IMG/VR virus record: IMGVR_UViG_3300045971_000528
Location: 42,082 to 106,081 of that record
Source: a virus
Direction: 5' to 3' (one strand)
DNA length: 64,000 nt
Position numbers and translations under genes: made by a program. Each line of letters opens with the position of its first letter. The stretch's first letter is position 1. Shown piece by piece: positions 5,742 to 54,244 of this stretch. The notes under the pieces were generated by a model that ran no database searches, was not told where the DNA came from, and worked only from the letters and a program-made list of their open reading frames with translations.

Positions 5742-5770
5742 ATTCTATCACAGCGGGTAGGAATGTACAC
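5742..5770 (-). promoter_or_regulatory. sigma70-like early promoter; representative of a family also at 6509, 33484, 33604, 40015, 42233, 49108, 54216, 56665 and 60555
   Basis: (G/T)TGTAC-N17/18-TAnRAT repeated upstream of operons. Confidence 0.8.
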
Positions 5771-6352: not shown

Positions 6353-6540
6353 TGAGTTGGCGCTGCAGATCGCGCTTCAGGTTCTGGCGGTTGAAGTCCT
6401 TCGGCCCACGCATACGACCGCCCTTAGCAGCAAGCAACACATCGTTGAGCTGCTTGGCGCGGGGTTTGGGGATATGAATGGTGAAGGTGGTCTTTTGCAT
6501 GATGAATCATTATACATCGGGTACGTGCACATGTACACCG

Positions 6541-21105: not shown

Positions 21106-21241
21106 GTTTGCAAATTCCTTCAAAGACAAAGTTGATGTTGGGAACAAAGTTTGCCGTCTTCCGACGGCGTTCTATTTATACCAATCCACTCTGGTATTGT
21201 ATCACACCATCAACCTGACGTGTCAGGCTGATTGTAACGTG

Positions 21242-22030: not shown

Positions 22031-22100
22031 GAGGATCCTTGTGGTGTGGGATATTTACAGGCGCTGGGCTCAGTACAATTCAAGATTGCCAGGATACGTG

Positions 22101-23011: not shown

Positions 23012-23737
23012 TCAATGAACCCTTGTCTTGTGCTCGTCGATCAGCGTGACCAACCAGTCCGGTGGATTGGTAGTGTCATCGACCATGCCTGCTGGCAGGG
23101 TGATCTGATAGACCTCAGAGTTCTCACCCTGAACTCGTGCACGAAGCTTCATCATGGCGACCATCTGGTGGTGCTCTGATGAGAAGCGATCGATCTTCAC
23201 GAGGCGCTCAATCTCGAGCATCTTTCGGTAGTTGCCGTCCTTGGTCTCCTTGAACCCCGGACGACCGATGAAGACGAACAGTTCGTTCTCCTCATCTTGC
23301 TTCTCTTGGTCTGGAGTGCGGTTGATCTTCCAGCCGGCTAGCTTGAGTTTGACACCGAGCTTAGCATCAAGGTGCTTTGCAAGTTCGTTCAAATCGATCT
23401 TGTCCTGTAGCTTGCGGATGGCAGGTGCATCCATCTTGGTCATTGCGACAACGATGCTAGTGAGGAGCTGATTCAGAACTTGCCCGTACTCGTAGCGTGT
23501 GGAGTGATCTACGCTTTTGTTGTTTTGCACGTCGATCAGCGGCTTGATGTACGTCAGCAGAACCTCGGGAGAATCGACCGAGTGCTTGTCATACGCCTTG
23601 TTCAGAATGCTAGCGAGCATCTCCTCATCTTCACCCATGGTGCGAAGCACGCGAAGGGTGATGGCAAACTGGTTCCCGTGCCAGATCTTGGTCAAGGGAC
23701 TGAAGTCAGAGGATTCGAGGAGTTGAGCTACACGCAT
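23012..23737 (-). CDS. hypothetical late protein (MRVAQLLE leader)
   Basis: ATAAATA 4 nt before ATG. Confidence 0.7.
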   Translation of the reverse strand: MRVAQLLESSDFSPLTKIWHGNQFAITLRVLRTMGEDEEMLASILNKAYDKHSVDSPEVLLTYIKPLIDVQNNKSVDHSTRYEYGQVLNQLLTSIVVAMTKMDAPAIRKLQDKIDLNELAKHLDAKLGVKLKLAGWKINRTPDQEKQDEENELFVFIGRPGFKETKDGNYRKMLEIERLVKIDRFSSEHHQMVAMMKLRARVQGENSEVYQITLPAGMVDDTTNPPDWLVTLIDEHKTRVH

Positions 23738-23747
23738 GCGATATTTA

Positions 23748-23839
23748 TGGAGGAGACGGCGGGATTCGAACCCGCGGATCCTGTGAGGGACCTCAACCTT
23801 TCCAGGGTTGTGCAATCAGCCGGGCTCTGCCACGTCTCC
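23748..23839 (-). tRNA. tRNA-Ser(GGA)
   Basis: cloverleaf, long V arm, CCA. Confidence 0.92.
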
Positions 23840-23899
23840 AGATTGCTGGGATCGCTTTCACGATCCCGTAACTCTTCGTACACTTGGTACGTGAGCTAT

Positions 23900-24133
23900 T
23901 TACTTGGCGGCGGAAGCTGCCTTTGCCGGTACACGTGGGACCACGGTACTTGGGTGAACGTTCTTCAGATGCAGTGCCTTGGCAGCACTGCGTTCACGCT
24001 GATACTTCTTGACAGCAGCCTTGTTCTTGGCTGCTTGGGAAGCTGCAGTAGTTGGTGCTGAAGCTGCAGGTGCTGCCGCTTGAGCGACGAGTGAAGTGGC
24101 CAAAAGGGAGGCCAGCAAAAATGACTTGATCAT
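23900..24133 (-). CDS. small secreted Ala/Lys-rich protein
   Basis: signal peptide. Confidence 0.65.
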   Translation of the reverse strand: MIKSFLLASLLATSLVAQAAAPAASAPTTAASQAAKNKAAVKKYQRERSAAKALHLKNVHPSTVVPRVPAKAASAAK

Positions 24134-24408
24134 GGAAGATTCCTATTGTTTGGTTGGCAGAGGTGTCTCGCCGCCACCGGCGCGAGTATTTCTACGTTCA
24201 ACGGCAACCTGCACATCGGTCTTGCGGCGATTTCCGACCGCGGCGGTGCGTGGAAATCCGTTGAAGGTTCGGTAAGATGTAAAGCTGACACCACAGAGAA
24301 GCGCGAGAATCGTCAAATCTGCTGGTTTCATCTGTTATCTCCATCCATATGCGTATACCTGCCGGTGATATGGTATTTAGCAGGTTCTGCGCATGAAGCA
24401 CCGTTTGT

Positions 24409-24847
24409 ATTCAAAGTCCTATAGCCGGGGTTCTGTCTAGACCTGTCATTCATCTACGGCTTTCACCGTCCTCGTGGGGTTTCAATCCCAGTCATAGGTG
24501 CAACAACCCGTTCCCTCGGCGAGCAGCGTCAGCGAGAACTGTTTGTCTTGCTCCAGAATCGTTGTGGTGCAAACGGGGCTAGCCGTGTTTCCTTACTGCA
24601 AGTCCGTCATTCACGAGAGTAAACACAGAACATCTCATGACACTTTGGCGAAACAAACAGCCTCGCGCTTTGAAGCGAGTCCCCTCCCACAGAGCGATCA
24701 TCCTTGCTCTTCGGAGCCCCGAACTTCCTCTAGACGGTTAGGTTTGTACCACACGGACTGGTTTCATCGACTTGATAGTCTCCACCAGAGGCTCAGCACA
24801 ATTATCGTTGTCACCTAATTCGTCCAGCGACAGGTCGGACTTTGAAT
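24409..24847 (-). ncRNA. rnpB: RNase P RNA
   Basis: P1 TTCAAAGTCC/GGACTTTGAA, P2 GACCTGTC/GACAGGTC, GAGGAAGTTCGGGGCTCC, GGAGCAAG, AGATGAATGA, ACAGAACCCCGGCTATAG. Confidence 0.9.
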
Positions 24848-25011
24848 TCTTGTCCAATGGATCAAGTGAATGTCGAAGCATCCGATCACGAATGACCTTG
24901 ATCTTCGAACTCCCCTTGTCGCAGTACCAGCAGCTACAATAGATCTTGTGCTTCTGCCGGTTCATCTTGATTCCGCGATCACGGTTCTTTCGATCACTCA
25001 TTGAAGTATCC

Positions 25012-25105
25012 TGGCGGTGATGGTGGGATTCGAACCCACGGGCCGTCTTGCGACGACCTCTTCCTTAGCAGGGAAGCCCGATAAGCCTGGCTCTGGCACA
25101 TCACC
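25012..25105 (-). tRNA. tRNA-Ser(GCT)
   Basis: cloverleaf, CCA. Confidence 0.92.
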
Positions 25106-25110
25106 TTTGT

Positions 25111-25335
25111 TTACTGTCGCGATAGGTGCGACTTGATCGCTGCGCGCATCTTCGGCAGAGAGTCTGCCAAAATGGGCTTGTCATTCAGCCGAATGTAGTA
25201 GTGCCCAGGCTCTCCTGGGACATTCCTGAATCGAATCGTGCCAATGACCTTGTCACCACAACGAGCCTCATAAGTTCCTTCCTCTCGGTCGAGAACTTTG
25301 AGCACGATCTTGTCGGTGATTTCGAGTAGTATCAT
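25111..25335 (-). CDS. small late protein (MILLEI leader)
   Basis: ATAAATA 5 nt before ATG. Confidence 0.65.
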   Translation of the reverse strand: MILLEITDKIVLKVLDREEGTYEARCGDKVIGTIRFRNVPGEPGHYYIRLNDKPILADSLPKMRAAIKSHLSRQ

Positions 25336-25348
25336 GCAGCTATTTATG

Positions 25349-25433
25349 TGGTCCCCTCGGCGAGACTCGAACTCGCACGCCTTTCAGCACCGGATTTTGA
25401 ATCCAGCGCGTCTACCAATTCCGCCACGAGGGG
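25349..25433 (-). tRNA. tRNA-Leu(CAA)
   Basis: cloverleaf, CCA. Confidence 0.92.
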
Positions 25434-25637
25434 TTAGTTCTTGCAGGTGGGTGTCATGCCTTGAGCATCCACCCACTTCGTTAGGTTGCCGGCACGATCC
25501 TTGATCCACTTCTCACCGCTGATGCAGACGACTGAAGCGTTCGCATCGCGCTTGACCTTTGCTGTGGACATTGCGATGATCAACACCGAGATGGGCACGA
25601 TAGCTGCGATCACGGCGATTAGAAGGGTCTTGTTCAT
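25434..25637 (-). CDS. small membrane-anchored protein
   Basis: N-terminal hydrophobic helix. Confidence 0.55.
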   Translation of the reverse strand: MNKTLLIAVIAAIVPISVLIIAMSTAKVKRDANASVVCISGEKWIKDRAGNLTKWVDAQGMTPTCKN

Positions 25638-25649
25638 ACCTTGCCTTGT

Positions 25650-25741
25650 TGGAGGAGATGGTGGGATTCGAACCCACGGCCAGGTTTCCCCAGCTCCGCA
25701 TTTCGAGTGCGGTGCAATAAGCCAGACTCTACCACATCTCC
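25650..25741 (-). tRNA. tRNA-Ser(CGA)
   Basis: cloverleaf, CCA. Confidence 0.92.
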
Positions 25742-26169
25742 ATTGTTTCTCTGAGCCCTTGACGAATGTCCATCACGAGCTTTCCTAGTTTGTTCTCTCC
25801 GATCCCGTTGCAGACTCCCCAGTAGATGTCTCCCCAGGTGTTCGTCTCTTCGAGATACATGTCGCCCGTGTTGAGCAACCAGATCTGTTCTTTGCCGTCC
25901 GCGTACTTTTGGAAGTTCACGTCAGCCATAACGTCATCACGAATTCCTTCGTACCAACCCGGTCGAATGACGACCTCTTGACCAAGGCGGCGTGCATCAC
26001 GTGGCTTCTCAGCGGCTTGGATGACTCGACGATGGTCGAGGTTCAGGGTCTTCGCTGCTTGATACGCGTGTTCAGTCGTGCGGTAGATCTCACCGTCATA
26101 CACCACCTTCTTGAAGTGGAAGTTGGAGAGGAACCGAAATGGACCGAAGAAACCGCGGATTGCTTGCAT
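25729..26169 (-). CDS. NADAR (YbiA-like) family protein
   Basis: FLSNF, EHAYQAAK, DIYWG, GENKLG motifs. Confidence 0.9.
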   Translation of the reverse strand: MQAIRGFFGPFRFLSNFHFKKVVYDGEIYRTTEHAYQAAKTLNLDHRRVIQAAEKPRDARRLGQEVVIRPGWYEGIRDDVMADVNFQKYADGKEQIWLLNTGDMYLEETNTWGDIYWGVCNGIGENKLGKLVMDIRQGLRETMEMW

Positions 26170-26172
26170 AAT

Positions 26173-26248
26173 TGGCTCCACCTCCTGGGCTCGAACCAGG
26201 GACCCACTGATTAACAGTCAGTTGCTCTACCAGCTGAGCTAAGGCGGA
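26173..26248 (-). tRNA. tRNA-Asn(GTT)
   Basis: cloverleaf, CCA. Confidence 0.93.
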
Positions 26249-26257
26249 ATGGAATAT

Positions 26258-26336
26258 TGGGGTGGTTGGTATTGTAGCTGCAGATTCGAACTGCTTGAAA
26301 CCATTCTACACTAAGAGTCAGTCAGTGGCCACCAAC
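26258..26336 (-). ncRNA. minimal tRNA-like RNA (T-arm, CCA end, no cloverleaf)
   Basis: GCAG-TTCGAAT-CTGC; GTTGGT/ACCAAC closing stem. Confidence 0.4.
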
Positions 26337-26392
26337 TTTCTCTGATCGGCCGATCACCTGCCCCTCTTGCGAAGGGACCCACCCGTTTTCTG

Positions 26393-26479
26393 TGGTGCGC
26401 GGGGCGGGACTCGAACCCGCATGCCGGTTAAGGCGTCAGGACCTAAACCTGGTGCGTCTACCAATTTCGCCACCCGCGC
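26393..26479 (-). tRNA. tRNA-Leu(TAG)
   Basis: cloverleaf, CCA. Confidence 0.92.
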
Positions 26480-26485
26480 AGAAAC

Positions 26486-26622
26486 CTTGATCTGAACACC
26501 GACAAAAGGCGATGTCGGAGATTGCCCACCTTTACCAAAGGGCATGGACGAATCGAACGTCCTCGGTTCTATTTCCACAATTGAAGGTAACCAACAATCA
26601 AGCGGTCGGTCTTCAGATCAAG
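26486..26622 (-). ncRNA. Y-RNA-like element 2
   Basis: shared module plus T-arm GGACG-TTCGATT-CGTCC. Confidence 0.7.
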
Positions 26623-26627
26623 ATTCA

Positions 26628-26702
26628 TGGTGCCCCAGGTAGGAATCGAACTCACGACCTACCGCTTACAAGGCGGTTGCTCTACCACTGAGCTACTAGG
26701 GC
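26628..26702 (-). tRNA. tRNA-Thr(TGT)
   Basis: cloverleaf, CCA. Confidence 0.9.
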
Positions 26703-26712
26703 ATTCAAACTT

Positions 26713-26788
26713 TGGAGTGGCGAGCCAGAATCGAACTGAGCTTCTGAAGGGTTGCAGCCTTCCGGATGGACCAATCTCCCACCGCCAC
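26713..26788 (-). tRNA. tRNA-Cys(GCA)
   Basis: loop CTGCAAC, U73, CCA. Confidence 0.8.
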
Positions 26789-26804
26789 ATTATCTGTTAT
26801 TGTA

Positions 26805-27092
26805 TCACACTGTCAGGACTTCGTGTCCTTCAACAGTCAGGTTGTCCTCTTCTTCTGGAAGCGGATCCTTTGGAATCTTCTTGAGCCAGTCCTGAGGAAC
26901 ATGAACTGTCTCGCCAATACCACCGTACTCGGAGATGAGATCACTGCCTTGGCTCTTCACAAGCCAGATGGTGCCATGTTCAGGGTGCCCGATGTAGTCG
27001 ATCTGAACGCACTCGACGATCTTGCCGGTGGAGTGTCCGTCCAAGCTCTTGATGACCACAGCGAGATCACCTGGTTCTAGTGAGTTCGACAT
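26805..27092 (-). CDS. hypothetical protein
   Basis: 95-aa ORF. Confidence 0.6.
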   Translation of the reverse strand: MSNSLEPGDLAVVIKSLDGHSTGKIVECVQIDYIGHPEHGTIWLVKSQGSDLISEYGGIGETVHVPQDWLKKIPKDPLPEEEDNLTVEGHEVLTV

Positions 27093-27304
27093 CAGACGCC
27101 TGTGCGAAGTTCAGTGATGTGAATCTGTTGGCCGGTGAGCTTCTCGCCGATCACTGTGGTGTCGAGAGCAACCTTGTTGATGAGGTGCGTACCTTCACCG
27201 AGCACACTGACGTCTGCACCAAGTTCGCGCAGCGCGCGTGCGATCGCAACCAAGATGTAGCCCTTACGGGAATGATCTGGACCGCTGACTTGAATCTGAA
27301 CCAT
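27092..27304 (-). CDS. hypothetical protein
   Basis: AGGAG RBS. Confidence 0.6.
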   Translation of the reverse strand: MVQIQVSGPDHSRKGYILVAIARALRELGADVSVLGEGTHLINKVALDTTVIGEKLTGQQIHITELRTGV

Positions 27305-27322
27305 CGCTGTCTCCTTGTGGTT

Positions 27323-27414
27323 TGGTAGGACCGCTCGGATTCGAACCGAGATCGTGCGCTAATCTGGCGCTCATGGCTTATAAGGCCACCGCTCTACCGT
27401 TGAGCTACAGTCCC
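27323..27414 (-). tRNA. tRNA-Ile(TAT) with long variable arm
   Basis: loop CTTATAA, CCA. Confidence 0.8.
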
Positions 27415-27459
27415 TTGGACTGTAGGTATTCGTGAAAAATCCATGTCAAAACTCCTTGA

Positions 27460-27533
27460 GGGTTGCGGGACCCTGAATCGAACAGTACTTCCGGGTTATG
27501 AGCCCAGTGTGCGGCCTCCACACTCGTCCCGCG
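27460..27533 (-). tRNA. degenerate initiator-like tRNA-Met(CAT)
   Basis: C1:A72 mismatch, GGG/CCC anticodon stem; mismatched T stem, no CCA. Confidence 0.6.
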
Positions 27534-27543
27534 ATTGATCTTT

Positions 27544-27629
27544 TGGTGCGCCGGGTGGGCCTCGAACCCACAATCCCGGAGGAAGCGGGGCTTAAACCCG
27601 CTGCGTATACCCACTTTCGCCACCGGCGC
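27544..27629 (-). tRNA. tRNA-Leu(TAA)
   Basis: cloverleaf, CCA. Confidence 0.88.
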
Positions 27630-27634
27630 CTTGT

Positions 27635-28033
27635 TCAGGTCTTTGGTAAGCGGACTGTCTTGATGTGAGCTGCTGCAGCCATATCGAATGAAACGATGTG
27701 ATCGTGCAGAATCTCTTCGAGACTCAGAATTGTTTTCTCATTCGACTTCGCCGGCGAAGTCGCAAGCATGTGCATCGCTTGGGCAAGCTCCTTATGGCGA
27801 GCTCGGTGAAGATCAAGACCTGGGCAACCCATGCGCTCCATCAGCGTCTCTTCAACGATGAAGTGCCGGCAGAGCTCACCACAAAAATCAGCGAGCTCGA
27901 TCTGAATGAGATTTTGCGGCACACAAGCAGTAATCATCGCTGCTATGTTCGTAGCCATGATGAGTAGGCTGAAGTGATCAGCGTCCATTTCGAGTACGCC
28001 TGTGGCATACTTGCTTGTCACTTCGGTCATCAT
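27635..28033 (-). CDS. bacteriohemerythrin-like protein
   Basis: MDADH, HF..EE.LM, H...H, HI...D iron ligands. Confidence 0.85.
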   Translation of the reverse strand: MMTEVTSKYATGVLEMDADHFSLLIMATNIAAMITACVPQNLIQIELADFCGELCRHFIVEETLMERMGCPGLDLHRARHKELAQAMHMLATSPAKSNEKTILSLEEILHDHIVSFDMAAAAHIKTVRLPKT

Positions 28034-28063
28034 GGATTTACGCGAACGTCTCCGGTTTTATTT

Positions 28064-28138
28064 TGGTGCCCATGGAGAGAATCGGACTCTCGACCTCCCC
28101 CTTACCAAGGGGGTGCTCTGCCACTGAGCCACATGGGC
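28064..28138 (-). tRNA. tRNA-Thr(GGT)
   Basis: cloverleaf, CCA. Confidence 0.92.
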
Positions 28139-28148
28139 GTTTTTCTAT

Positions 28149-28436
28149 TTAGGCATCCGGGGGTCTATTCAACCTATTTCTGCCGATGTGGTAGCCATCG
28201 CAGTGAATGCACTTGTAGTTGGAGAAGTAGCAGCTGTTCTTCTTGGTCATGGCTGCAGCAGACTTCTCAGCGGTGGCCTTGGTGTTGTACATCACCTTCG
28301 GCTTACCCGATCCCTGAGCAACGTGTGAATTGATGTGGAACAGCCCCCACGCATTGCGAGTGATGAAGAAGTTCCGAAAGAACCGAAGTGGCGGCCCTTG
28401 ATCCAAGAGAGCCAACCAGAGGTTTCTCAGCTTCAT
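28149..28436 (-). CDS. hypothetical protein with C-terminal CxxC...H zinc motif
   Basis: YKCIHCDGYHIG; AAGGA RBS. Confidence 0.65.
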   Translation of the reverse strand: MKLRNLWLALLDQGPPLRFFRNFFITRNAWGLFHINSHVAQGSGKPKVMYNTKATAEKSAAAMTKKNSCYFSNYKCIHCDGYHIGRNRLNRPPDA

Positions 28437-28454
28437 GATTGTTCCTTGATGTAG

Positions 28455-28529
28455 TGGTGGAGACCGCGAGAATCGAACTCGTCTAGACATCCTCGCTGCC
28501 AGCGAGAACCGCAACCCATTGCTGCCCCC
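28455..28529 (-). tRNA. tRNA-Ala(GGC), atypical D arm
   Basis: G3:U70, loop CTGGCAG, CCA. Confidence 0.7.
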
Positions 28530-28670
28530 AAAATTCTGTGAGGAGCTTTGACTCCTCTCGCTAGCCCCTTCCCTAAGGCTTCTCCTCGAGACCGGCCGGG
28601 ACGTCGAGGGTCTTATCGCTTCTCAGTTTAGCTAGACGCCTTTCGGCGGCACCCTTGCGGGATTCTTGTG

Positions 28671-29273
28671 TTAGCGCAATGAAAGGACGCCATCCTTGAA
28701 GTGGAAACCATCAGCCATATTGGCTGGTTTACGCACGAGTTCTCGAAACGTGCGCTGCTCGCCAGAAACCGCAGCGATTCTTTGCTGTCCTGACGGATGG
28801 GTTCCAGATGCACCAGTGACGCTAAGCAGCTTCGTGAGGCCGGGTAGGATATTCAAACCAGCGTCTCGAGCTATTGCGACGCCAAGAAGATCGGCATCGT
28901 ACTCGCGGTTCCAGGTTTCTTGCTCATTCTTTGGTAGCACAGAGAGATCAAGTTGATGTGAGTGGCCCAATGCGCAGTGAGCAAGCTCGTGAGCAACCGC
29001 AGCAGTGAAGGCTTCACCATCCATACCCTTGAGGAAGGTTGATGACACCTGGAGGCGGCAACCATCGGTGTACACAACAAACGGAAATCGCGGTGCTGAC
29101 GAATCTTCCTTGATGGTGAGAGTTGCCGCGGGTACTCTTGGTGCGTAGTGCGCAAGATGCTCTACTACGGTGCGGGCTTCTTCTTGAGGCATCGCCTGTA
29201 TGCACGGCACAGTGAAGGCAGACAAGAGGATGAGCAGCAATCGAGCTGCTCGGGGCTTGATTTGTCGGTCCAT
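28671..29273 (-). CDS. M48-family Zn metallopeptidase, exported
   Basis: HELAH, EYDAD, THP motifs. Confidence 0.85.
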   Translation of the reverse strand: MDRQIKPRAARLLLILLSAFTVPCIQAMPQEEARTVVEHLAHYAPRVPAATLTIKEDSSAPRFPFVVYTDGCRLQVSSTFLKGMDGEAFTAAVAHELAHCALGHSHQLDLSVLPKNEQETWNREYDADLLGVAIARDAGLNILPGLTKLLSVTGASGTHPSGQQRIAAVSGEQRTFRELVRKPANMADGFHFKDGVLSLR

Positions 29274-29485
29274 AGATGCATTATACACCAATGGGGGTCC
29301 GCGTACAGGTTACAGTGTAACAACTGCCTGCATGTTCTCGGCTGCACTTTCCTACCTTGCTCCTGGATTCGTTGAAGCGATCTACGTTCGGGCGGCCTAC
29401 GAAAGTGTATCAGCACGCCTCAAGGCATTTACAACCTAGAGAGACGGAATACGGTAGCGAACCATTTTCCGTCTCTCATTCTGTT

Positions 29486-29560
29486 TGGTCAGGGACCTGG
29501 GAGTTGAACCCAGACTACTCGGCTCCGGACCGAATCGGCTGCCACACGCCTCCGTCCCTG
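29486..29560 (-). tRNA. tRNA-Pro(CGG), atypical (C33)
   Basis: C1:G72, A73, CCA. Confidence 0.65.
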
Positions 29561-29751
29561 TTGTGAGGGGGCTCAAGCCACTGGCCAGTGACTAACGACG
29601 GTATCCTGACAGTTAGAGCCGCGGCCCCACTTGCACATCCCGTTCTCGCTAACTTGAACCACTTTGTTCGGCCCTATCGTAGGCGCATCTTACGATGCCG
29701 AAGTAGCCGATGCTGCGCAAGCATCGATCTTCCTACGCCTAAGGACTTGAT

Positions 29752-29839
29752 TGGTGCGGGTGAGAGGACTCGAACCTCCACGGTCGCAATGACCAACGCC
29801 TTCTGAAGACGCCGCGGCTACCAATTTCGCCACACCCGC
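29752..29839 (-). tRNA. tRNA-Leu(CAG)
   Basis: cloverleaf, CCA. Confidence 0.9.
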
Positions 29840-29970
29840 AATATTCGTGGCCCTTTATTCGGCTTCCGCCTTATTCTCAAACCGGCTTGAACGGATCCTT
29901 AACCCACCCCGGTACCATTGGGTGGAGGAGCGACGGTACTGCATACGCCAACGCTGCAGTTACGACAACT

Positions 29971-30060
29971 TGGTGCCCTGAGTCGGACTCGAACCGACAT
30001 CCACTAGTTTCGTGGCCGACCTTCTCAGGGTCGTGTGTTTACCAATTTCACCACCAGGGC
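29971..30060 (-). tRNA. tRNA-Leu(GAG)
   Basis: cloverleaf, CCA. Confidence 0.9.
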
Positions 30061-30068
30061 AGAATACA

Positions 30069-30226
30069 TTGACAGCAAAGGAGCGAGACGGAGATTCCCT
30101 TTCGGGAAGACTGGTGCGTCTGCCAATTTCGCCACCACCGACAACGTTCATCGGCGGGAAGGACTCGAACCTTCATGCCCTGTTACGGGCGCCTGTTTGA
30201 GATAACCATACTCTATCGGCTGTCAA
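30069..30226 (-). ncRNA. Y-RNA-like element 3 (circularly permuted tRNA-Leu-like cargo)
   Basis: V/T arm, loop-closed acceptor stem, then D arm GGCGAAATTGGCAGACGC. Confidence 0.8.
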
Positions 30227-30305
30227 ATCTTGGTGGTTGACTCCACCTGCTGCTTGGCCTCTGCCGTAGATCAACGGTGACGGTTGCAGCGCCTTGCTAT
30301 TGTCT

Positions 30306-30394
30306 TGGTGTTCATTGGCTGGGAATCGAACCCGTACGGACGGCATCAGTCCGCGTCTACCAACCCAGATCGCCTTAGGGACTGGCCAATGAAC
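30306..30394 (-). ncRNA. tRNA-like RNA with 10-bp acceptor stem and extra arm
   Basis: GTTCATTGGC/GCCAATGAAC + ACCA; TTCGATT loop. Confidence 0.55.
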
Positions 30395-30400
30395 GAATTG

Positions 30401-30480
30401 TGGTAGCGGGGGCGGGATTTGAACCACGCGATCTCTAGCTTATGAGGCTAGCGGGAACGGCCAGGCTTCCCTACCCCGCG
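30401..30480 (-). tRNA. tRNA-Met(CAT)
   Basis: loop CTCATAA, C1 mismatch, CCA. Confidence 0.8.
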
Positions 30481-30794
30481 TCAGATTACTTGAAGTTGAA
30501 ATGGTCCAGCAGATCTGCTGGAATCGTGTCAAAGTGAAACTCAACAACTTCCAGGCCGGTACGAAGATCACGCGTCGAATCATGGATCGACTGGCGTGGG
30601 CCACGTGGCTGAGAGAGGTTGGTCGGTGGGCGCAGATCATCTCCATGGAGAGTCGTATTCACCCAATCGCGAACACCAGCATCACGGCTGGCAGATGAAC
30701 TACCGGTCATTTTCCTGGTCCTTTCACTGTTGAAATTCATGGGGCATGCTGAGCAAAATCCCCGAGGTCCTGCTTCCGCGGCCTCATATTGTTT

Positions 30795-30880
30795 TGGAGC
30801 GGGTGATGAGAATCGAACTCACATGCGACTTGCGTCTGCCGGCTTGGAAGGCCGGTGCCCTGCCAATGGACCACACCCGC
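30795..30880 (-). tRNA. tRNA-Gly(TCC) with long variable arm
   Basis: loop CTTCCAA, U73, CCA. Confidence 0.8.
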
Positions 30881-30889
30881 GTTAGTGTT

Positions 30890-30963
30890 TGGAGCGGAAG
30901 ACCGGAATCGAACCGGCGACTAAACGATGGCAACGTCTCGAGATACCACTTCACCACATCCGC
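30890..30963 (-). tRNA. tRNA-Gly(GCC)
   Basis: cloverleaf, CCA. Confidence 0.8.
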
Positions 30964-31219
30964 ATACGGGGGAATTCCACACCCCTCTCGATGTCAAGGC
31001 TTGCTGTCAGTACGGTTTCCCGTTCTTACCATGACCAGATCCACGAGTGAGACCATGTTCTTCTTGACGTCACGGCTTTCTGTCAAGGTCGCTTCCTTCA
31101 TCCCTCTGCATTTTGAGGGCCGTCCGTACGACTTGCGGTCGTAGAAGCTAACGTGGGGTGAGGGAAGGAGTGCGTGCCTTCATTACTCCACGACCTCCCC
31201 TGGTCGTGGCCTCCGAATT

Positions 31220-31327
31220 TGGAGCGGGATAAGAGACTCGAACTCTCGACCTGAACCTTGTTCTAGACACGTCATTTCTTCGATGCCTAGAGGCAAGGTT
31301 CCGCTCTACCAACTGAGCTAATCCCGC
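31220..31327 (-). tRNA. tRNA-Gly(GCC) with 32-nt hairpin insertion in anticodon loop
   Basis: canonical body; insert at 31260-31291. Confidence 0.8.
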
Positions 31328-31640
31328 ATGGCGCTGACTAGGCTGTCACAGCGCTGTGATGCATTCACCGGCTGGGCATGGGTAACCCATTCTCCTGCAC
31401 CTTCCAGCTGAGGACAGCAGCTGAAAACTGTTCGTGCGTGGTGGCACTTTCGAACGTACCGGCCACATTGCACTAGGGACCGACTGAACTTCAGTCGGGG
31501 ATCCACCACCTTGTTCAGAAGGGAACAAGGAACCTTGATCATTGAACTCAACGACTGCACATCCTGAGAAGGAATTTAACGACTTTGTCAGCAGTCTCGC
31601 GTTATAAAGTGGGGTGTCTCGGTTACTAACCCACACGTTC

Positions 31641-31878
31641 AAAAGGGTTCAACAGGTAGGAATCGAACCTACATCTCCCAGCTCCACGCCAGGGCTCTGA
31701 CCAATATGAGCTACCGTCGAAAGGGGTTGTCTTAGCCAGGATTTCGAAACCTGGACCTCCCGGGTACACCGGGCGTGCTCCCATTACACTACAGACAAAG
31801 GGGTTTGCTTCACGTAGAGTTCGAACTACGTCCTTCCGGTAGAAATCCGGGTGTGCTTGACCTTACACCATCAGCAAA
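31641..31878 (-). ncRNA. three tandem tRNA mimics with aberrant anticodon loops and no CCA
   Basis: D and T arms intact; each ends AACCC(C)TTT. Confidence 0.65.
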
Positions 31879-31881
31879 ACT

Positions 31882-31958
31882 TGGTCGGAGTACAAGGATT
31901 CGAACCTTGGACCCCCTGGTCCCAAACCAGGTGCGCTACCAGACTGCGCTACACTCCG
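31882..31958 (-). tRNA. tRNA-Pro(TGG)
   Basis: cloverleaf, CCA. Confidence 0.93.
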
Positions 31959-31967
31959 ATGAAACTA

Positions 31968-32084
31968 TTGCAAGCAAAAAGCGATGAAGGAGTTGCTCCC
32001 CGACTGGAGCTTGGAATCCCTTTCGAGACTCCATGGAGTCGAACCATGCATCTGTAAGATAACCTTCAACAAGCGGCTTGCGAA
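31968..32084 (-). ncRNA. Y-RNA-like element 4 (YrlA-type T-AS-D order)
   Basis: CATGG-TTCGACT-CCATG, GAAA-capped stem, D-like hairpin. Confidence 0.8.
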
Positions 32085-32093
32085 TTCTATTTA

Positions 32094-32199
32094 TCATAGA
32101 GCCCTTTGTCTGGGCGGCAGGATTCGAACCTGCGATCTATCGGGTCCAGACCGAGGATGTTGGCCAGGCTACACTACGCCCAGACAAAGGACTCTATGA
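32094..32199 (-). ncRNA. tRNA-Pro(TGG)-like body on an extended 23-bp stem, no CCA
   Basis: flanks TCATAGAGTCCTTTGT/ACAAAGGGCTCTATGA pair. Confidence 0.6.
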
Positions 32200-32210
32200 C
32201 TTCAATTCAA

Positions 32211-32268
32211 GAGAACAAAAGGCGTTGAGGGCTGTTTCATAGCCTGATAACCCTCAACAACGGTTCTC
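32211..32268 (-). ncRNA. Y-RNA-like element 5 (minimal, module only)
   Basis: GAGAACCG..GTTGAGGGTTATC..CCCTCAAC..TTTTGTTCTC. Confidence 0.7.
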
Positions 32269-32273
32269 GTATT

Positions 32274-32360
32274 TGGTGCGGGTAAGAGGACTCGAACCTC
32301 CACTCCCTTGCGGGAACAAGCACCTCAAGCTTGCGCGTCTACCAATTCCGCCATACCCGC
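32274..32360 (-). tRNA. tRNA-Leu(GAG)
   Basis: cloverleaf, CCA. Confidence 0.92.
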
Positions 32361-32433
32361 ATGAATCTCTCGAGGACGGTTGCAGCGTCCTCTTCCCTAA
32401 CCGGCTATTTGCAACGACCGGATCGGAGTACCT

Positions 32434-32509
32434 TGGTGGAGGATATCGGTCTCGAACCGATCACCTCAAGCTTGCAAAGCTAGCGCTCTCCCAGATGAGC
32501 TAATCCCCC
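32434..32509 (-). tRNA. tRNA-Ala(TGC)
   Basis: G3:U70, CCA. Confidence 0.9.
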
Positions 32510-32527
32510 AAAAATCTATCTTCAAAC

Positions 32528-32617
32528 TGGCGGGGTCGGTGAGATTCGAACTCACGGGCCGATTTCTCGACCGTCGGTTTTCAAGACCGGTGCGTTAGAC
32601 CGCTCCGCCACGACCCC
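32528..32617 (-). tRNA. tRNA-Ser(TGA)
   Basis: cloverleaf, CCA. Confidence 0.92.
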
Positions 32618-32623
32618 ATTGTC

Positions 32624-32701
32624 TTGCGTCCCGTACAGGATTTGAACCTATGTTGCCGCCCCGAAAAGAGGCAGAGTCCTGAGCCACTAGACGAACGGGA
32701 C
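32624..32701 (-). tRNA. tRNA-Glu-like with expanded anticodon loop, no CCA
   Basis: Glu-type body; 9-nt loop TCTTTTCGG. Confidence 0.55.
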
Positions 32702-32709
32702 AAACAAAT

Positions 32710-32785
32710 TGGTGGAGGCCGGGAGAATCGAACTCCTCTAGTCACAGTGCTTGCAAGGCACCGCCGGATCCCAATCACTGCCCCC
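32710..32785 (-). tRNA. tRNA-Ala(TGC), atypical D arm
   Basis: G3:U70, loop CTTGCAA, CCA. Confidence 0.7.
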
Positions 32786-32789
32786 AATT

Positions 32790-32873
32790 TGGTGTAGTCG
32801 GTTGGATTCGAACCAACGCGTCGTTAGAGACTGTTTTACAGACAGCCGGTTTCAGCCACTCACCCACGACTAC
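32790..32873 (-). tRNA. tRNA-Tyr(GTA)
   Basis: cloverleaf, CCA. Confidence 0.88.
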
Positions 32874-32962
32874 ATAATTGTTCCCCTAGTCAGGGGGTGA
32901 ACCTCAACTCATCACCGTTCCGCGGTACAAACGCGATCCTCCGAGTTGAAACTCATACATCT

Positions 32963-33048
32963 TGGTGGGTAGCCTAGGAGTCGAACCTAGTGTGCCGTAA
33001 GGCGGCGGGGTTACAGCCCGCTGCAGTCGCCAGTGCTGCTCGCTACCC
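32963..33048 (-). tRNA. tRNA-Tyr(GTA)
   Basis: cloverleaf, CCA. Confidence 0.85.
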
Positions 33049-33128
33049 ATGAATTTTCCATTTGGGAATCACACTTACCTTGGCTATCCCTTGCGGGCCC
33101 TCCGAAATGAGGGAGTATGATTACCAAA

Positions 33129-33203
33129 TGGTCGGAACTGTAGGGATCGAACCTACGACCTTCGCCTTGTAAGGGCACCGCTCTACCGCTGAGCTAAGCT
33201 CCG
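33129..33203 (-). tRNA. tRNA-Val(TAC)
   Basis: loop CTTACAA, CCA. Confidence 0.85.
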
Positions 33204-33407
33204 ATGTGGACTGTTGTTAGATGCCATCGGTGCAACAGCACGTCAAGTTCATCTTCTGCCAACAGTCCGTTCTTACGTTGTGCGTGATTACCCACAGACG
33301 ACTCCTCAGTGCTTGCGCACTTACGGTACACGTTTCTGCCTTCGACCTACACGGGCCGGTTATTTCAGGGCGGTCACAAACAGCGTAAGCTGTTGGCAAT
33401 CTTGAAT

Positions 33408-33419
33408 TGTTAAAGAGCA
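33408..33419 (-). promoter_or_regulatory. rrn-type boxA antitermination element
   Basis: exact TGCTCTTTAACA, preceded by a hairpin and two promoters. Confidence 0.85.
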
Positions 33420-33669
33420 CCTACTGCAACCAGTAGGAGGCAGAGACTGAATCCTTGTCTCAGTATCTGCAGTTGTTGAAGCTATTATACAACAGAGCTT
33501 CAACCTTGTACAACATTCTTTTGAAGAGATTTGGCGGTTGACTCGACCGTCTTGGGCCTGTAGGATCCGCGTTTTACGAGACAAACATCTTCAGAAGAAT
33601 GCTATCATATCACACTGGCTAAACTTGTACACACAAACTTTGTTTCAAACTGTAACCTGGAAAGCAACC

Positions 33670-33697
33670 AAGGGCAGAAGCCTTTCGGTTTCTGCCC
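33670..33697. terminator. hairpin between array B and the RNA operon promoters
   Basis: AGGGCAGAA..TTCTGCCCT inverted repeat. Confidence 0.6.
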
Positions 33698-33887
33698 TTG
33701 GGTTGGTAGGTGTTGTCCTACTTTATCCTTGGGCAGCCTCCGCTGGATAGGCTGGCGCGCATACTGCACTACCTGACCCGGTGGTCAGAAGAAGCGAGGA
33801 TGAAGGCAAGCCTAGAGAATTCACGGAAGATACTTCCTTAGTCGATGTTGTAATTCTATATATGCGGCGGGCGGGAAATGCACAAAT

Positions 33888-36509: not shown

Positions 36510-37144
36510 AGGTTCGTCAGATCGATGATGTCGAGTCGCTTGAAGACGGCTGACTTGTGGATGCCCTTGAAGAAGCCGCCAGGCATGACAAGCTCTTCTT
36601 CAGCTGACTGACCAGCAGTGTGGTAGAGCAGGCCGAAGAACATCTCGTCCCTGAACTTGTTCCACACCTGCGAGAAGGCGTGCTCGTGTCCAGGATTTTC
36701 GTCGTCGAACTCTTGTCCGGTTGCTTGTTTGAATTCACGGTCCCACACCCCATTGAAAGCTTCTTCACCGATCCAGGCATCATAGCCCATGTAGAGGCCA
36801 TTGTCTTCAGGACGGTAGCCCACGAACACGAGAGACTTGTCATCGACGGGTGATGAGAAGCTGAAGGCGTGATGTGGCTTGCGGGAGCCCTTCACCTTAG
36901 ACAGATCCATCTCGATTTCGACTTCAATGCCGTCAGAGCGCTTCAGCAGACGCATCACTCGGTTTTGGGCATTGTCGATGGCAGGACCATCCTCACCATC
37001 ACCAAAGACCAACTGGCCCTTGTAGGTGAGTGCGTTCTTCTTGGCACGCATGGCCTTGACGTAGGTGTTCTTGTAGAACCTGACGAGGTCACCTAGTTCG
37101 ACTAGGTTAGCTGCGTCTTCCGAGAGCAGTTCATTGATCTTCAT
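36506..37144 (-). CDS. array-B first gene (MKINELLSE leader)
   Basis: GTAAATA at 37169-37175. Confidence 0.75.
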   Translation of the reverse strand: MKINELLSEDAANLVELGDLVRFYKNTYVKAMRAKKNALTYKGQLVFGDGEDGPAIDNAQNRVMRLLKRSDGIEVEIEMDLSKVKGSRKPHHAFSFSSPVDDKSLVFVGYRPEDNGLYMGYDAWIGEEAFNGVWDREFKQATGQEFDDENPGHEHAFSQVWNKFRDEMFFGLLYHTAGQSAEEELVMPGGFFKGIHKSAVFKRLDIIDLTNL

Positions 37145-37187
37145 AGCTGATCCGTAGCATGGATCAGCTATTTACGGACAACCAGTG

Positions 37188-37418
37188 TCAGCCGAAGATC
37201 TTGGTGATGACTGCTTCAGGCACCTGCCAGAGCAGGGTGTCCTGTTCCGTAGTGAGCGACTCAGAGATGGAGATGCCACGGACGATGTCGGTGACAATCT
37301 CGAGAGCCTCTTCTTTGAGGAGATGCGTAGAGACCGATTGATCTTCCAGCCGAAGCTGGAGATTCCGTGATAGATCTGGCGGCAGGCGTCGAAAGATCTC
37401 TACGATGTCCATGTTCAA
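37188..37418 (-). CDS. hypothetical protein
   Basis: coupled ORF. Confidence 0.55.
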   Translation of the reverse strand: MNMDIVEIFRRLPPDLSRNLQLRLEDQSVSTHLLKEEALEIVTDIVRGISISESLTTEQDTLLWQVPEAVITKIFG

Positions 37419-37720
37419 CCCCGAAGTAGCTGATTGGAAGGTGTGGCGAGGATCAAACCGGTGGTCTGTTGAATGTAGCTGTCGGAAACCTCACCGAGGA
37501 TCTTGACAGGGCGCGCCACGAGCGCGTGATCGAGCAGCTCGACTTCTTCTTCGTCGTGCAGAAGCGACCACTTCGAGAAGCCAAGGGTTGGCTGGCCATC
37601 GGCGCCGCGCATCATGTGGATGACGAGCGGGTTCTTGACCTTGTAACCAGTGCCAGTGGCAGCAACCAGGTTGGCAATGAGTTCCTGACCAGTCGTCAGC
37701 ATGAATGAGCGAATGTCCAT
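37415..37720 (-). CDS. Sm-like small protein of T4-like phages
   Basis: LTTGQELIA, KNP, Y.Q.T.GL pattern. Confidence 0.55.
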   Translation of the reverse strand: MDIRSFMLTTGQELIANLVAATGTGYKVKNPLVIHMMRGADGQPTLGFSKWSLLHDEEEVELLDHALVARPVKILGEVSDSYIQQTTGLILATPSNQLLRG

Positions 37721-37747
37721 TGAAATATCCCGGGAGTTTGAAAGTAT

Positions 37748-38158
37748 TTACAGAGCTTCAGGCAGCTGATACATCCGCTGCATGTTGTTCGTGATGAACG
37801 AACGCCAGCCGTCACGGTCCGTCGAGTAGACGTGAAGCAGGTGGGGTTGTTCTGGGCGGCCTGCACCGGCGAACACCGTCGGATCAGACGATGGCAGCAG
37901 CTTCGGATCGAGCGTGCACTCCATGATCGCGTTGGTGCCATCAGCCTTGGTGAACTCGATGACCCACTTGCCGACTTGCAGGTAGCTGCGGATCTGCTCG
38001 CGCTTCTCGAGCTGAGATTCGGTCATGACTGTCGCTGGCTTGGGGATCTTGGGAATCGTTTTGCGGTACGGTGCATTTGGGCCACCGATCTTGGTGTCGG
38101 CAATGGGCACCCCGTTCTGCATGGAGTTGAGGACGGCGATGGTGGATGGCTTGGTCAT
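37748..38158 (-). CDS. SH3/WYL-like beta-barrel protein
   Basis: FTKADGT..M.CT and GWRSF motifs. Confidence 0.65.
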   Translation of the reverse strand: MTKPSTIAVLNSMQNGVPIADTKIGGPNAPYRKTIPKIPKPATVMTESQLEKREQIRSYLQVGKWVIEFTKADGTNAIMECTLDPKLLPSSDPTVFAGAGRPEQPHLLHVYSTDRDGWRSFITNNMQRMYQLPEAL

Positions 38159-38449
38159 TCAGAGTCTCCTCGGGCTTGGGCAGCAGCTTCTTCTGCTTCA
38201 CGATCACAGTCCATAACGCACTTGTCGGCGATATGGTTGGCAAGGGAAATCAAGATCGAACGAACACTCTCACGGCTCATGCACTCGTTCATGCACGTGA
38301 TCTCATGGGTATCTCGATTCACATCGAAGGAGAGTTGGCCGAAGCCACAGCCCTTCCAGGCCCAGTTGAAGTAGGCCTGGCCTTGGAAGATCGTACCGAT
38401 CTCAGGTGGGTTCGCGGCCATCATAGCCCGCCGTTCATCAGGTGTCATC
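38155..38449 (-). CDS. hypothetical protein
   Basis: ORF in gene run; start approximate. Confidence 0.5.
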
Positions 38450-38984
38450 ATAGTTCGTCGATGTTGAGAATGCAGCCCTTGACTTGGAGGTCTGGCCACA
38501 TGAAGGTTTCATTGAACACGGCGTCATCGAGGAGCATCACCTCGCCGACAATACCATGCTCGCGTGTCTTGGAGAACATGTTGCGCATACAGAGACGGAA
38601 GGCTTCGTGTTTGCCCCAAAAGTTGCTCATCTCCTGGAAGTCGACGAGGCTGCGTTGAAGCCCCATCACCTTGCAGCAAACCGGGAGAATGTCTTCGTCG
38701 ACGGTGGGCACTAGACTGAATTGCATGCCGAGCGCCGCCTCCAGCATTGGGCGAACGGCTTGATTAAACTGCTCGCGTTGCGCGACGTTCCAGATGGCGA
38801 AAGAGAAGATGTGCAGGAAGTCTGGCTGAAACTTCGCCATGACCGCCTTGACCTTGTCAATGTTGATGAGCTCCGTCTTCCACCAACCCTCGATCACGGG
38901 CGTGATCACGGTGTCTTCGAGGTCTATAAATAGATGGGAACGAACTTCAGGAGCCCGAGTTGAGTGATCAAATGATGCATCCAT
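38448..38984 (-). CDS. HAD-like hydrolase
   Basis: FIDLEDT, IFS, LLDD motifs. Confidence 0.65.
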   Translation of the reverse strand: MDASFDHSTRAPEVRSHLFIDLEDTVITPVIEGWWKTELINIDKVKAVMAKFQPDFLHIFSFAIWNVAQREQFNQAVRPMLEAALGMQFSLVPTVDEDILPVCCKVMGLQRSLVDFQEMSNFWGKHEAFRLCMRNMFSKTREHGIVGEVMLLDDAVFNETFMWPDLQVKGCILNIDEL

Positions 38985-39670
38985 ATTGTGTCTACATTAC
39001 CTTCTATCATGGTGACCTTCTACCTCCATTTTACATCGGATCGTCGTCAACGTGTAAAGTGGAAGCAGGTTACAATGGCACCGTTTCATCTAAAACGTGG
39101 AAGCGCGTGTGGGAAGATGAACAGCGACTTCACAAAGATCTATTCTACACGATGATCGTGTCAGTGCATCCTACCCGTAATGATGCACTCGAAGCCGAAT
39201 TCGCAGCACAAAAACAGTTCGATGCGGTCAACTCAGATCTATTCATCAACAAGGGGTATGCTCACAAGAAGTTTTGGGGCGAGAACTTCAAACCTGGACA
39301 CCGACACACAGAAGAAACGAAAGCGAAGATGCGAAATCGAGTAGTGACGGAGGAGACACGAAGAAGAATGTCAGAGGCCGGGAAACTAAAAGCGCCAATG
39401 TCAGAGGAGACACGAGCCAAAATGCTTGCACGTGATCCCGCAACCCGTCTTCATTCTACCGAAACAAAAGCAAAGATCAGCAGATCAAACAGAAAACCAA
39501 AGACGGCCGAGGCCGTCAAAAATTCAGTTGCCGCTCGTTTGGCAGTCATGACCCCGGAGTTCAGAGAGAAGTTAGCAGCCAATCGTGGCAAGCATTGGTA
39601 TAACAACGGCACCAAAAGCTTCTTGATGCTTGACACTGAAGCCGATGGTCTGCAGCGTGGTCGCCTTTAG
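38972..39670 (+). mobile_element. free-standing GIY-YIG homing endonuclease with NUMOD3 repeats
   Basis: YCVY..FYIGS; HTEETKAKM-type repeats; AT-richer; own TATAAATA at 38925. Confidence 0.88.
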
Positions 39671-40008: not shown

Positions 40009-40051
40009 AAGAACATTGTATCACGGTACCGCGCCTTTGTACACAGTCTAG

Positions 40052-42146: not shown

Positions 42147-42262
42147 GATAGCCTCGTAGTGTGGTGACTTCGTTTACAGCGTGGTGAAGTCGATACCGGT
42201 TCAATGCTGCGGGACTCTTTGTTGACTGTTCTATTCTACCATAGTCAACGCCGAATGTACAA

Positions 42263-43045: not shown

Positions 43046-43120
43046 TGGTGCGCCCGGCGGGAATCGAACCCGCGCCAAAGGATTTAGAATCCCCTACTCT
43101 AACCGCTGAGCTACGAGCGC
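43046..43120 (-). tRNA. amber suppressor tRNA (anticodon CTA)
   Basis: stem GGGGA/TCCTT, loop TTCTAAA, CCA; own TATAAT just upstream. Confidence 0.8.
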
Positions 43121-43430: not shown

Positions 43431-43448
43431 ACGGACCCGAAGGTCCGT
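43431..43448 (-). terminator. cUUCGg terminator after tmRNA
   Basis: ACGGACC-TTCG-GGTCCGT followed by T-rich tract. Confidence 0.7.
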
Positions 43449-43454
43449 GTCGGA

Positions 43455-43740
43455 TGACTCAGCGAACTGAGTCACCTACCGTTTGATGACAAGGACCGGG
43501 TGTCCTCGCAAAGCTTACGCCGCTAGGCGCAGTCCTTCGAAGTTAGCATCGTTTGCAGATACTTGGTTTTGCTTGATTTACGGTCATCGCCTACCGAGCG
43601 CAAGAAAAGTTACTAGTCTGTCGGTCGATTACCAGATCACCCCCATCAGAAGAACACCCGCAGATGCGCTTATGGTGGAGGTGGGGGGATTTGAACCCCC
43701 GTGTCGCCAGCATTTCTCAGTCCTCGTTTACGCTGTTATT
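43455..43740 (-). ncRNA. ssrA: circularly permuted (two-piece) tmRNA, tag ANDANFEGLRLAA
   Basis: T arm and CCA (ending 43673) precede 5' GGGGGTG (43644); G3:U wobble; tag at 43515-43556; outer ends approximate. Confidence 0.92.
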
Positions 43741-44356
43741 GGAAGCCTGGGTTCAGGCGTCCCAATTTCAAATTCTTCGTCCTCTCGTCAGTGATGGCAA
43801 GCAGAAAATTGGTAGTTGAATCATTATACCACCTTTTCCCGTACGTGCCATTCTTTTTGCACTTTTTGTTTTCGATCCATTCGCTTGACAAAATCCATCC
43901 AACAGGTTGATCACCACGAACAAACCTCCTTCGGTCGCCATCAGCATCTCGATAGATGCTCGTACCAAATGCAGAATTTGTATCGCCTTGCTGGTGGTTG
44001 ATCGATGCGTATGTGTTCTTCCGTTTAGCAACCGCTTCTGGTGTGGAAGCCTGGGCCGTGGCATATTCTTGGTTCTTCGTATTTAGTTTCCAATTAGCAG
44101 ATGTCGGCTTTTTCCAGGGTTGATTTGCAGCGACTGCCTTATGACCACCTAGTCTTTGCAGCTCATGCACTAATTCTGACTTCGAGATAATTCCTGCCAA
44201 ACCTTTCCAAGCCAACTTGTCCTCTACTCTACCGTGCGTTTCATAGAGCAGCCGGTGTGCTTCGGCGTGTTCAGCAACGGTGAGCAGTTCTATGTTGTCT
44301 GGAGAATCTGTTCCACCAGCATGTGTGGGAATTTTGTGATGACGATGTTTCAACAT
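43736..44356 (-). mobile_element. HNH homing endonuclease
   Basis: HHKIP..GG.D..DN..L...EH...H; AT-rich; TATAAATA 4 nt before ATG. Confidence 0.88.
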
Positions 44357-49084: not shown

Positions 49085-49147
49085 GGTGTACCTTGTTGAG
49101 ATGAATGATTGTATACCAGGGTGTCCGAAATGTACACCCTGAACTTG

Positions 49148-54181: not shown

Positions 54182-54244
54182 GGTGGATAGAACTCCGTTA
54201 GGAAGAGGTTAAGACATTGTATCACGAATCAGCCAGGTTGTACA

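Follow-up and report, generated by a model that had tools for sequence, protein, structure and literature searches.

The window analysed here is a 64,000-nucleotide stretch of viral DNA, the right-hand 64 kb (positions 42,082-106,081) of the 106-kb IMG/VR record IMGVR_UViG_3300045971_000528. Since the estimated completeness of the record is 29%, its length points to a phage of jumbo size. The phage has a GC content of about 55% and carries nearly all of its genes on the minus strand. The record includes NAD-salvage genes, a CCA-adding enzyme, a permuted tmRNA, a tRNA with a CUA anticodon and two tRNA arrays. All listed sequencing runs that contain the stretch are DNA runs from pond and wetland metagenomes, with no RNA runs among them. 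BLAST comparison with isolate phages gave matches at the level of tRNAs only and no close isolate phage, and the CCA-adding enzyme shares at most ~61% identity with its counterparts in isolate phages. Protein-anchored scans of IMG/VR and of the JGI metagenomes found no close relatives, nor was one matched in metagenomes by an unbiased DNA pattern running from the promoter to tRNA-Val. One related pond-metagenome contig, aligned at 80% likeness, aligns on either side of 33278-33659 and not across it, a weak hint of a relative with a different leader.

The region of interest is the head of one of the tRNA arrays, together with the array itself and the sequence behind it. Read along the minus strand, it consists of a terminator, two promoters (P1 and P2), two leader hairpins, a boxA element, a 200-nt structured leader and tRNA-Val, the first tRNA of the array. 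The following features were annotated, with window coordinates unless stated otherwise:

33661-33701, minus strand: intrinsic terminator ending the upstream unit, with a 15-bp stem, a 4-nt loop and then TTGCTTT
33668-33682 and 33687-33701: arms of the terminator stem, detected in the sequence as inverted repeat I13
33604-33631, minus strand: promoter P1, TGTACA-16-TATGAT, with TG before the -10 hexamer, supported by the promoter scan and by the phage promoter family
33484-33512, minus strand: promoter P2, TGTACA-17-TATAAT, with 10 of 12 consensus matches, supported by the same two lines of evidence
33440-33470, minus strand: first leader hairpin, +9 to +39 from the predicted P2 start, in both the minimum-energy and the centroid fold
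33420-33437, minus strand: second leader hairpin, CCTACTG-GTTG-CAGTAGG, 7 bp with a GUUG loop, abutting boxA in the position that boxB takes in rrn leaders
33405-33419, minus strand: boxA, TGCTCTTTAACAATT, an exact match, with the core GCTCTTTAACAA at 33418-33407
33394-33410, minus strand: 5' strand of a long-range helix, ACAATTCAAGATTGCCA, beginning in the last 4 nt of boxA
23748-33203, minus strand: stable-RNA array of 28 tRNAs called by ARAGORN and one tRNA found by Rfam only, with spacers or unclassified RNAs and small protein genes
22075-22091, minus strand: 3' strand of the long-range helix, TGGCAATCTTGAATTGT, a perfect 17-nt complement 11,302 nt downstream, with pairing that reaches ~22058
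22052-22058, minus strand: GTAAATA motif directly behind the trailer, 22 nt before the ATG (22030) of a nuclease gene
5742-5769, 6509-6537, 40015-40043, 42233-42261, 49108-49136 and 54216-54244, among others, minus strand: further members of the promoter family
G000 23733-24200 (locus L120 9733-10200): head of the other tRNA array, with promoter, small ORF and terminator

Generic sigma70 matches in the region occur at chance level (11 found against 8.0 expected), and a promoter signal specific to the phage was therefore sought by scanning the whole 106-kb record with the pattern TGTACA-N15-19-TAnnnT. The resulting family, GTTACA-N10-TGTACA-N16-18-TAnnAT, has 11 copies where 2.1 are expected. 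All 11 lie on the coding (minus) strand, and most carry GTTACA about 10 nt upstream of the -35-like TGTACA. Both P1 and P2 are members, and P2, with a predicted start near 33477, is the top-scoring promoter match within 14 kb. The -10 hexamers of the two promoters are 120 bp apart, so that the pair of sigma70-like promoters about 120 bp apart proposed in the initial annotation is borne out at 33631-33604 and 33512-33484, now as part of an 11-copy phage family. Among the family members only P1 and P2 have TGTACAAG and ATAGCwTTC in common, which suggests a local duplication. No further member was found between 33484 and 6537, so within that family the block depends on P1 and P2. Just upstream of P1 lies an AT-rich near-palindrome (33634-33650) that is 88% complementary over 17 nt to 21137-21153. 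The latter arm stands just past the terminator downstream of the endonuclease gene, and the two form an outer pair around the 17-bp helix described below.

The boxA element contains the exact 13-mer TGCTCTTTAACAA of E. coli rrn boxA at 33419-33407 and extends to the 15-mer TGCTCTTTAACAATT, identical at 15 of 15 positions to an enterobacterial rrn leader, although that leader may not be the one of the phage host. It is the sole exact copy in the window, and no other site with at most one mismatch occurs anywhere in the 106-kb record; by our own arithmetic ~0.003 exact copies would be expected by chance. The sequence fits the functional boxA consensus GYTCTTTAANA (Baniulyte et al. 2017, PMC5725501). 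It lies on the sense strand of the predicted leader, at about +59 from the predicted P2 start and +179 from that of P1, and its core GCUCUUUA is unpaired in both the minimum-energy and the centroid fold. A hairpin at 33420-33437 abutting an exact boxA had also been claimed from the sequence, and both elements are indeed in place on the minus strand. An Rfam search with the 200-nt leader matched nothing, and the RNA block contains no second boxA. Genes for NusB, NusG and S10 are likewise absent from the fragment (~29% of the genome), so that host factors would be needed. Windows with more C than G that resemble rut sites are present in the block at a frequency no higher than elsewhere and thus give no information either way on Rho.

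The array starts with tRNA-Val at 33203. By our own sum of minus-strand ORFs, coding sequence makes up at most ~37% of the block. The description of the block as largely untranslated therefore stands in outline and needs the qualification that it also holds real small genes (25729-26181, 27635-28033 and 28671-29291), which encode a NADAR domain protein, a hemerythrin-like protein whose score does not reach the Pfam cut-off and an M48-like peptidase whose N-terminus resembles a signal peptide. Rfam detected tRNAs only and no ribosomal RNA cargo in the block, which makes it a mimic of the rrn design and not an rrn operon. One tRNA at 31223-31327 (54.7 bits, 105 nt) was found by Rfam and not called by ARAGORN, and may be lengthened by an intron or a large insertion. 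Also of unusual length is tRNA-Ile(tat) at 27323-27414, with 92 nt. Outside the block described here, and with no boxA nearby, lie the CUA-anticodon tRNA of amber suppressor type (43046-43120) and the permuted tmRNA of betaproteobacterial type (43432-43785).

The other tRNA array of the same phage comprises 26 tRNAs. At its head are a promoter of the same type, a small ORF and a strong terminator. It lacks a boxA (at most one mismatch, whole record). Only a 12-nt complement between its leader and trailer was found (G000 17463-17474), a length not above chance; it sits 2 nt past the final tRNA of the array, with TAAATA following.

A long-range complement between leader and trailer

A search for trailer partners by duplex energy was dropped because many windows reached about -46 kcal/mol, and a test for exact complements was used instead. 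The longest perfect complement of the leader is 17 nt, compared with 10 on average and at most 15 in 500 leader shuffles, and the resulting 17-bp pair is the sole perfect inverted pair of at least 15 nt in 17 kb. When leader and trailer were folded together, the predicted helix comprised 17+3+8 bp at -38.3 kcal/mol and reached back to 33423, covering all of boxA. The trailer site lies behind the last tRNA and behind the ORFs and RNA elements that follow that tRNA. From its sequence, the pair 33410-33394 / 22091-22075 looks like a leader-trailer helix that brackets the whole block. The perfect complement, 11.3 kb downstream of the leader, gives sequence-defined ends to the unit that had been estimated at about 11 kb from the initial reading of the region.

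The end of the trailer is separated by 45 nt from the ATG of a gene for a secreted non-specific endonuclease. The GTAAATA motif in this interval may be a candidate for the following promoter, in which case the RNA unit would end there. TCTTGAATTG, which forms the core of the trailer strand, occurs once more at 32203-32212, with CTTTTGTTC in front of it just as at the trailer. This copy could offer the leader strand another pairing partner or could be the trace of a duplication of the neighbouring RNA element.

In the E. coli 16S leader-trailer helix, a length of more than 17 bp is critical (PMC10250234), and we counted the phage helix as long enough by this standard, with 17 bp perfect and extendable to 17+3+8. 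The same work proposes a tether model for boxC and the 16S helix, in which the leader strand is kept at the polymerase (PMC10250234). No gene for RNase III is present in the fragment, and the host enzyme is assumed.

boxA ahead of tRNA arrays in other phages

A survey of boxA upstream of phage tRNA arrays, as called for in the initial annotation, was carried out in IMG/VR with a pattern that requires the boxA core and then a tRNA T-loop motif 50-80 nt later. It returned 53 stretches from ~27 contexts, compared with two stretches when the boxA was reversed as a control. In 51 of the 53 stretches ARAGORN called downstream tRNAs on the same strand, and in 46 of those the first tRNA begins at most 20 nt from boxA. 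About two thirds of the stretches have no tRNA within 1.5 kb upstream, which indicates that boxA usually stands at the head of the array. The contexts range from 32 to 57% GC on contigs of up to 424 kb, and many of the stretches have a TATAAT-like hexamer 15-40 nt upstream of boxA. The three bases that follow the boxA core are mostly T (27, 23 and 23 of 34 contexts), which also holds for rrn leaders. Immediately ahead of boxA, a hairpin was found in 16 of 37 cases against 9 of 37 control windows, a modest excess that makes it a frequent companion of boxA and not a defining part.

In four unrelated lineages (L179, L158, L156 and L185) a perfect complement of 15-18 bp is anchored at boxA, with a 5' arm that begins 8-12 nt past the first base of the core. 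The 3' arm lies behind all tRNAs of the array in three of these lineages and behind six of the seven tRNAs in L185. A fifth lineage has an 11-bp helix core that is invariant among relatives whose trailers are otherwise ~73% identical, with no compensatory changes.

The arrangement is also present in cultured phages. In the Xanthomonas phage XacN1 (AP018399.1), a promoter TTGACA-16-TAAAGT is followed ~35 nt later by GTTCTTTAACAA, directly upstream of a permuted tmRNA (123 bits) and a GOLLD RNA (227 bits), behind which come tRNAs; the 2.5 kb at 36560-39053 are unannotated in the record. The leader is common to XacN1, the Stenotrophomonas phage RAS14 and a third contig, and its longest invariant block is boxA GTTCTTTAACAA plus TTGAGCGG. 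A scan of genome contigs with the XacN1-type leader gave a single match, CAZWVI010000002.1, a 222-kb contig of a 'Planctomycetales' MAG that probably derives from a jumbo phage and was binned with a bacterial genome. Like the window phage, XacN1 and RAS14 have a sigma70-type promoter and then a consensus boxA heading a stable-RNA operon, an element that is not annotated in their records, even though they are unrelated to the window phage at the sequence level. They differ in that their boxA is the Y=T variant (GTTCTTTAACAA); in XacN1, moreover, no long-range helix was found within 13 kb, whereas one of 17 bp is predicted for the window phage.

A consensus boxA is absent from five isolate phages with tRNA genes and is thus not a general requirement. 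In the Ralstonia jumbo phage RsoM2USA (MG752970.1), a boxA-like sequence with one mismatch, GCTCTTTTACAA, lies between two array tRNAs at 87079-87090; it does not fit GYTCTTTAANA.

Relation to rRNA leaders and other boxA systems

The boxA element and its Nus complex are textbook components of rRNA operons and of lambdoid nut sites, and have lately been described at suhB and CRISPR arrays. In rrn leaders, boxB and boxA recruit NusB, NusE, NusA and NusG for antitermination against Rho.

An enterobacterial rrn leader matched in IMG/VR allows a direct comparison of layouts. Its P1 and P2 -10 hexamers are 117 bp apart, close to the 120 bp of the phage, and they are followed by the boxB hairpin, a 2-nt gap, the same 15-mer as in the phage and then boxC. 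In the phage the hairpin likewise precedes boxA, although the two abut. A further likeness, with the boxC helix model (PMC10250234), is that the stretch of leader adjoining boxA would pair with a trailer beyond the cargo. Several differences are nevertheless evident. The phage cargo consists of tRNAs, unclassified RNAs and a few small genes instead of rRNA, and the loop measures 11.3 kb compared with 1.5-3 kb in rrn operons. The phage helix begins inside boxA, whereas the rrn helix begins 18-19 nt after it. The phage promoters have a TGTACA -35 element with an upstream GTTACA and lack a GC-rich discriminator, and the phage block is without a second boxA.

For CRISPR arrays, an upstream boxA is reported to support distal expression (Stringer et al. 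2020, eLife, as cited in PMC7862264). The CRISPR and suhB (Baniulyte et al. 2017) elements share the consensus with the phage element, and the CRISPR case in particular places an rrn-type boxA ahead of a long untranslated repeat array; the window element differs from both in being viral, in heading tRNA genes and in being coupled to a bracketing helix. The boxA survey of Baniulyte et al. 2017 left out non-coding RNAs (PMC5725501). The parts are known, but their context is not: among the papers searched, we found none that places boxA, or a leader-trailer helix anchored at boxA, at phage tRNA arrays.

The role that Nus factors play at such sites is debated in published work. Their need against Rho has been questioned even at rRNA, where the complex is argued to aid mainly folding and the formation of long-range helices (including PMC10250234), and at the boxA of suhB the Nus factors promote Rho termination.

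Proposed mechanism and alternative explanations

Judged from the sequence, the region is probably the control region of a phage stable-RNA operon that is laid out like a bacterial pre-rRNA and borrows the host Nus machinery. Transcription would be started by host RNA polymerase at the two tandem sigma70-type family promoters, which are themselves read from the DNA. According to the sequence and the predicted fold, the nascent leader would form two hairpins and then expose the rrn-type boxA. Host NusB-NusE(S10) would bind boxA and, with NusG, NusA and SuhB, convert the polymerase into an rrn-type antitermination complex, a step that we infer from the known behaviour of the exact boxA sequence in bacteria. 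Such a complex should be fast, processive and Rho-resistant along an 11.3-kb stretch of RNA that is mostly untranslated. The 17-nt segment beginning within boxA would stay tethered to the polymerase and pair with its complement as this emerges after the last stable RNA; of this step, the complementarity is read directly. Closure of the helix would place the block within a leader-trailer helix like that of pre-rRNA cut by RNase III, with boxA buried, and could thereby lead to cleavage and to the release of the Nus factors.

The proposal that the phage hijacks host rrn antitermination thus gains from the consensus boxA, from the rrn-like order and spacing of the elements, from the lack of a Nus gene in the fragment and from the strongly positive IMG/VR survey, whereas its emphasis on Rho is too narrow, since resistance to Rho is only one possible gain and speed or folding and processing are others. 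The design read here also goes beyond that earlier proposal in that a putative 17-bp leader-trailer helix, which starts inside boxA, brackets the block.

Three other explanations were considered and are less well supported than the rrn-type antitermination reading. The boxA and an adjacent hairpin might form a lambda-type nut site at which a phage N-like protein joins the host Nus factors, in which case antitermination would also pass intrinsic terminators and would be switched by the phage protein. Phages are the classic users of boxA, and the lambdoid sites resemble the window element in their use of the host Nus machinery, which for the latter is proposed; lambdoid-looking prophage contexts with the same 14-mer do occur in IMG/VR, one of them beside DicF. 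However, the strong hairpin of the window phage stands before boxA, as in rrn leaders and unlike in nut sites. A lambda nut site has a boxB with a GNRA-like pentaloop within ~8 nt after boxA, and the possible second hairpin downstream, AACAGC-TTAC-GCTGTT, starts 12 nt after boxA, has a UUAC loop and is absent from the minimum-energy fold. The bases after boxA are, moreover, occupied by the 17-bp long-range helix. A single boxA is present in 106 kb despite ten other promoters of the same family, and it belongs to a stable-RNA operon, whereas nut sites serve early mRNA operons. No N-like partner was identified in the window phage, but such proteins are small and diverse and only ~29% of the genome is in hand. 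Taken together, these observations make a nut site quite unlikely.

An explanation that dispenses with an RNA device altogether would make boxA a recombination relic of a host rrn or tRNA operon, the hairpin with TGCTCTTT a weak terminator or attenuator, and the 17-bp pair an inverted repeat in the DNA, such as might delimit a mobile tRNA cassette. An 11-kb segment between inverted repeats does resemble a mobile or invertible cassette, and a loose terminator scan flags the hairpin and its tail as terminator-like; yet the U-run is interrupted, the tail UGCUCUUUAA is identical to boxA, and a terminator tail leaves the exact 15-nt identity with rrn boxA unexplained. Neither end of the block carries a recombinase, the neighbouring gene being the one for the secreted non-specific endonuclease. 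Arms placed at the end of boxA and behind all or nearly all tRNAs on the transcribed strand recur in four unrelated lineages, and a repeat acting at the DNA level has no reason for such a placement. We therefore consider this explanation very unlikely. Most improbable, in our estimate, is a negative or decoy role, in which boxA would titrate NusB/NusE away from the host rRNA operons or act as at suhB by Rho termination or leader repression. The suhB precedent shows that context sets the sign of the boxA effect, and a strongly transcribed leader would yield many boxA copies. Nevertheless, there is no plausible gene start beside boxA: a 67-codon GTG frame at this site has no spacing from its sole SD-like bases and would give a Cys-rich, unnatural-looking product. 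A positive role agrees better with the repeated placement of boxA ahead of long tRNA arrays and with its link to the bracketing helix.

Extending the rrn-type antitermination reading to other phages is more tentative. It is possible, at somewhat less than even chances, that the tRNA arrays of many phages are mimics of pre-rRNA, in which boxA loads a Nus tether, closure of the helix releases the Nus factors and lets RNase III enter, and the array is made as one chaperoned precursor. If this is true, long stable RNAs in general would be served by the rrn antitermination complex, which viruses would regularly hijack and which would work with loops several times longer than any rRNA. A direct test of the hypothesis is possible in culture, since XacN1 and RAS14 have the promoter-boxA head. 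For the window phage, the 11-kb loop would be a natural test of the rrn tether model if the reading holds. The same reading would account for the transcription of untranslated phage arrays several kilobases long despite the presence of Rho in the host, and would make the Nus factors of the host one more component on which tRNA-rich and jumbo phages depend.
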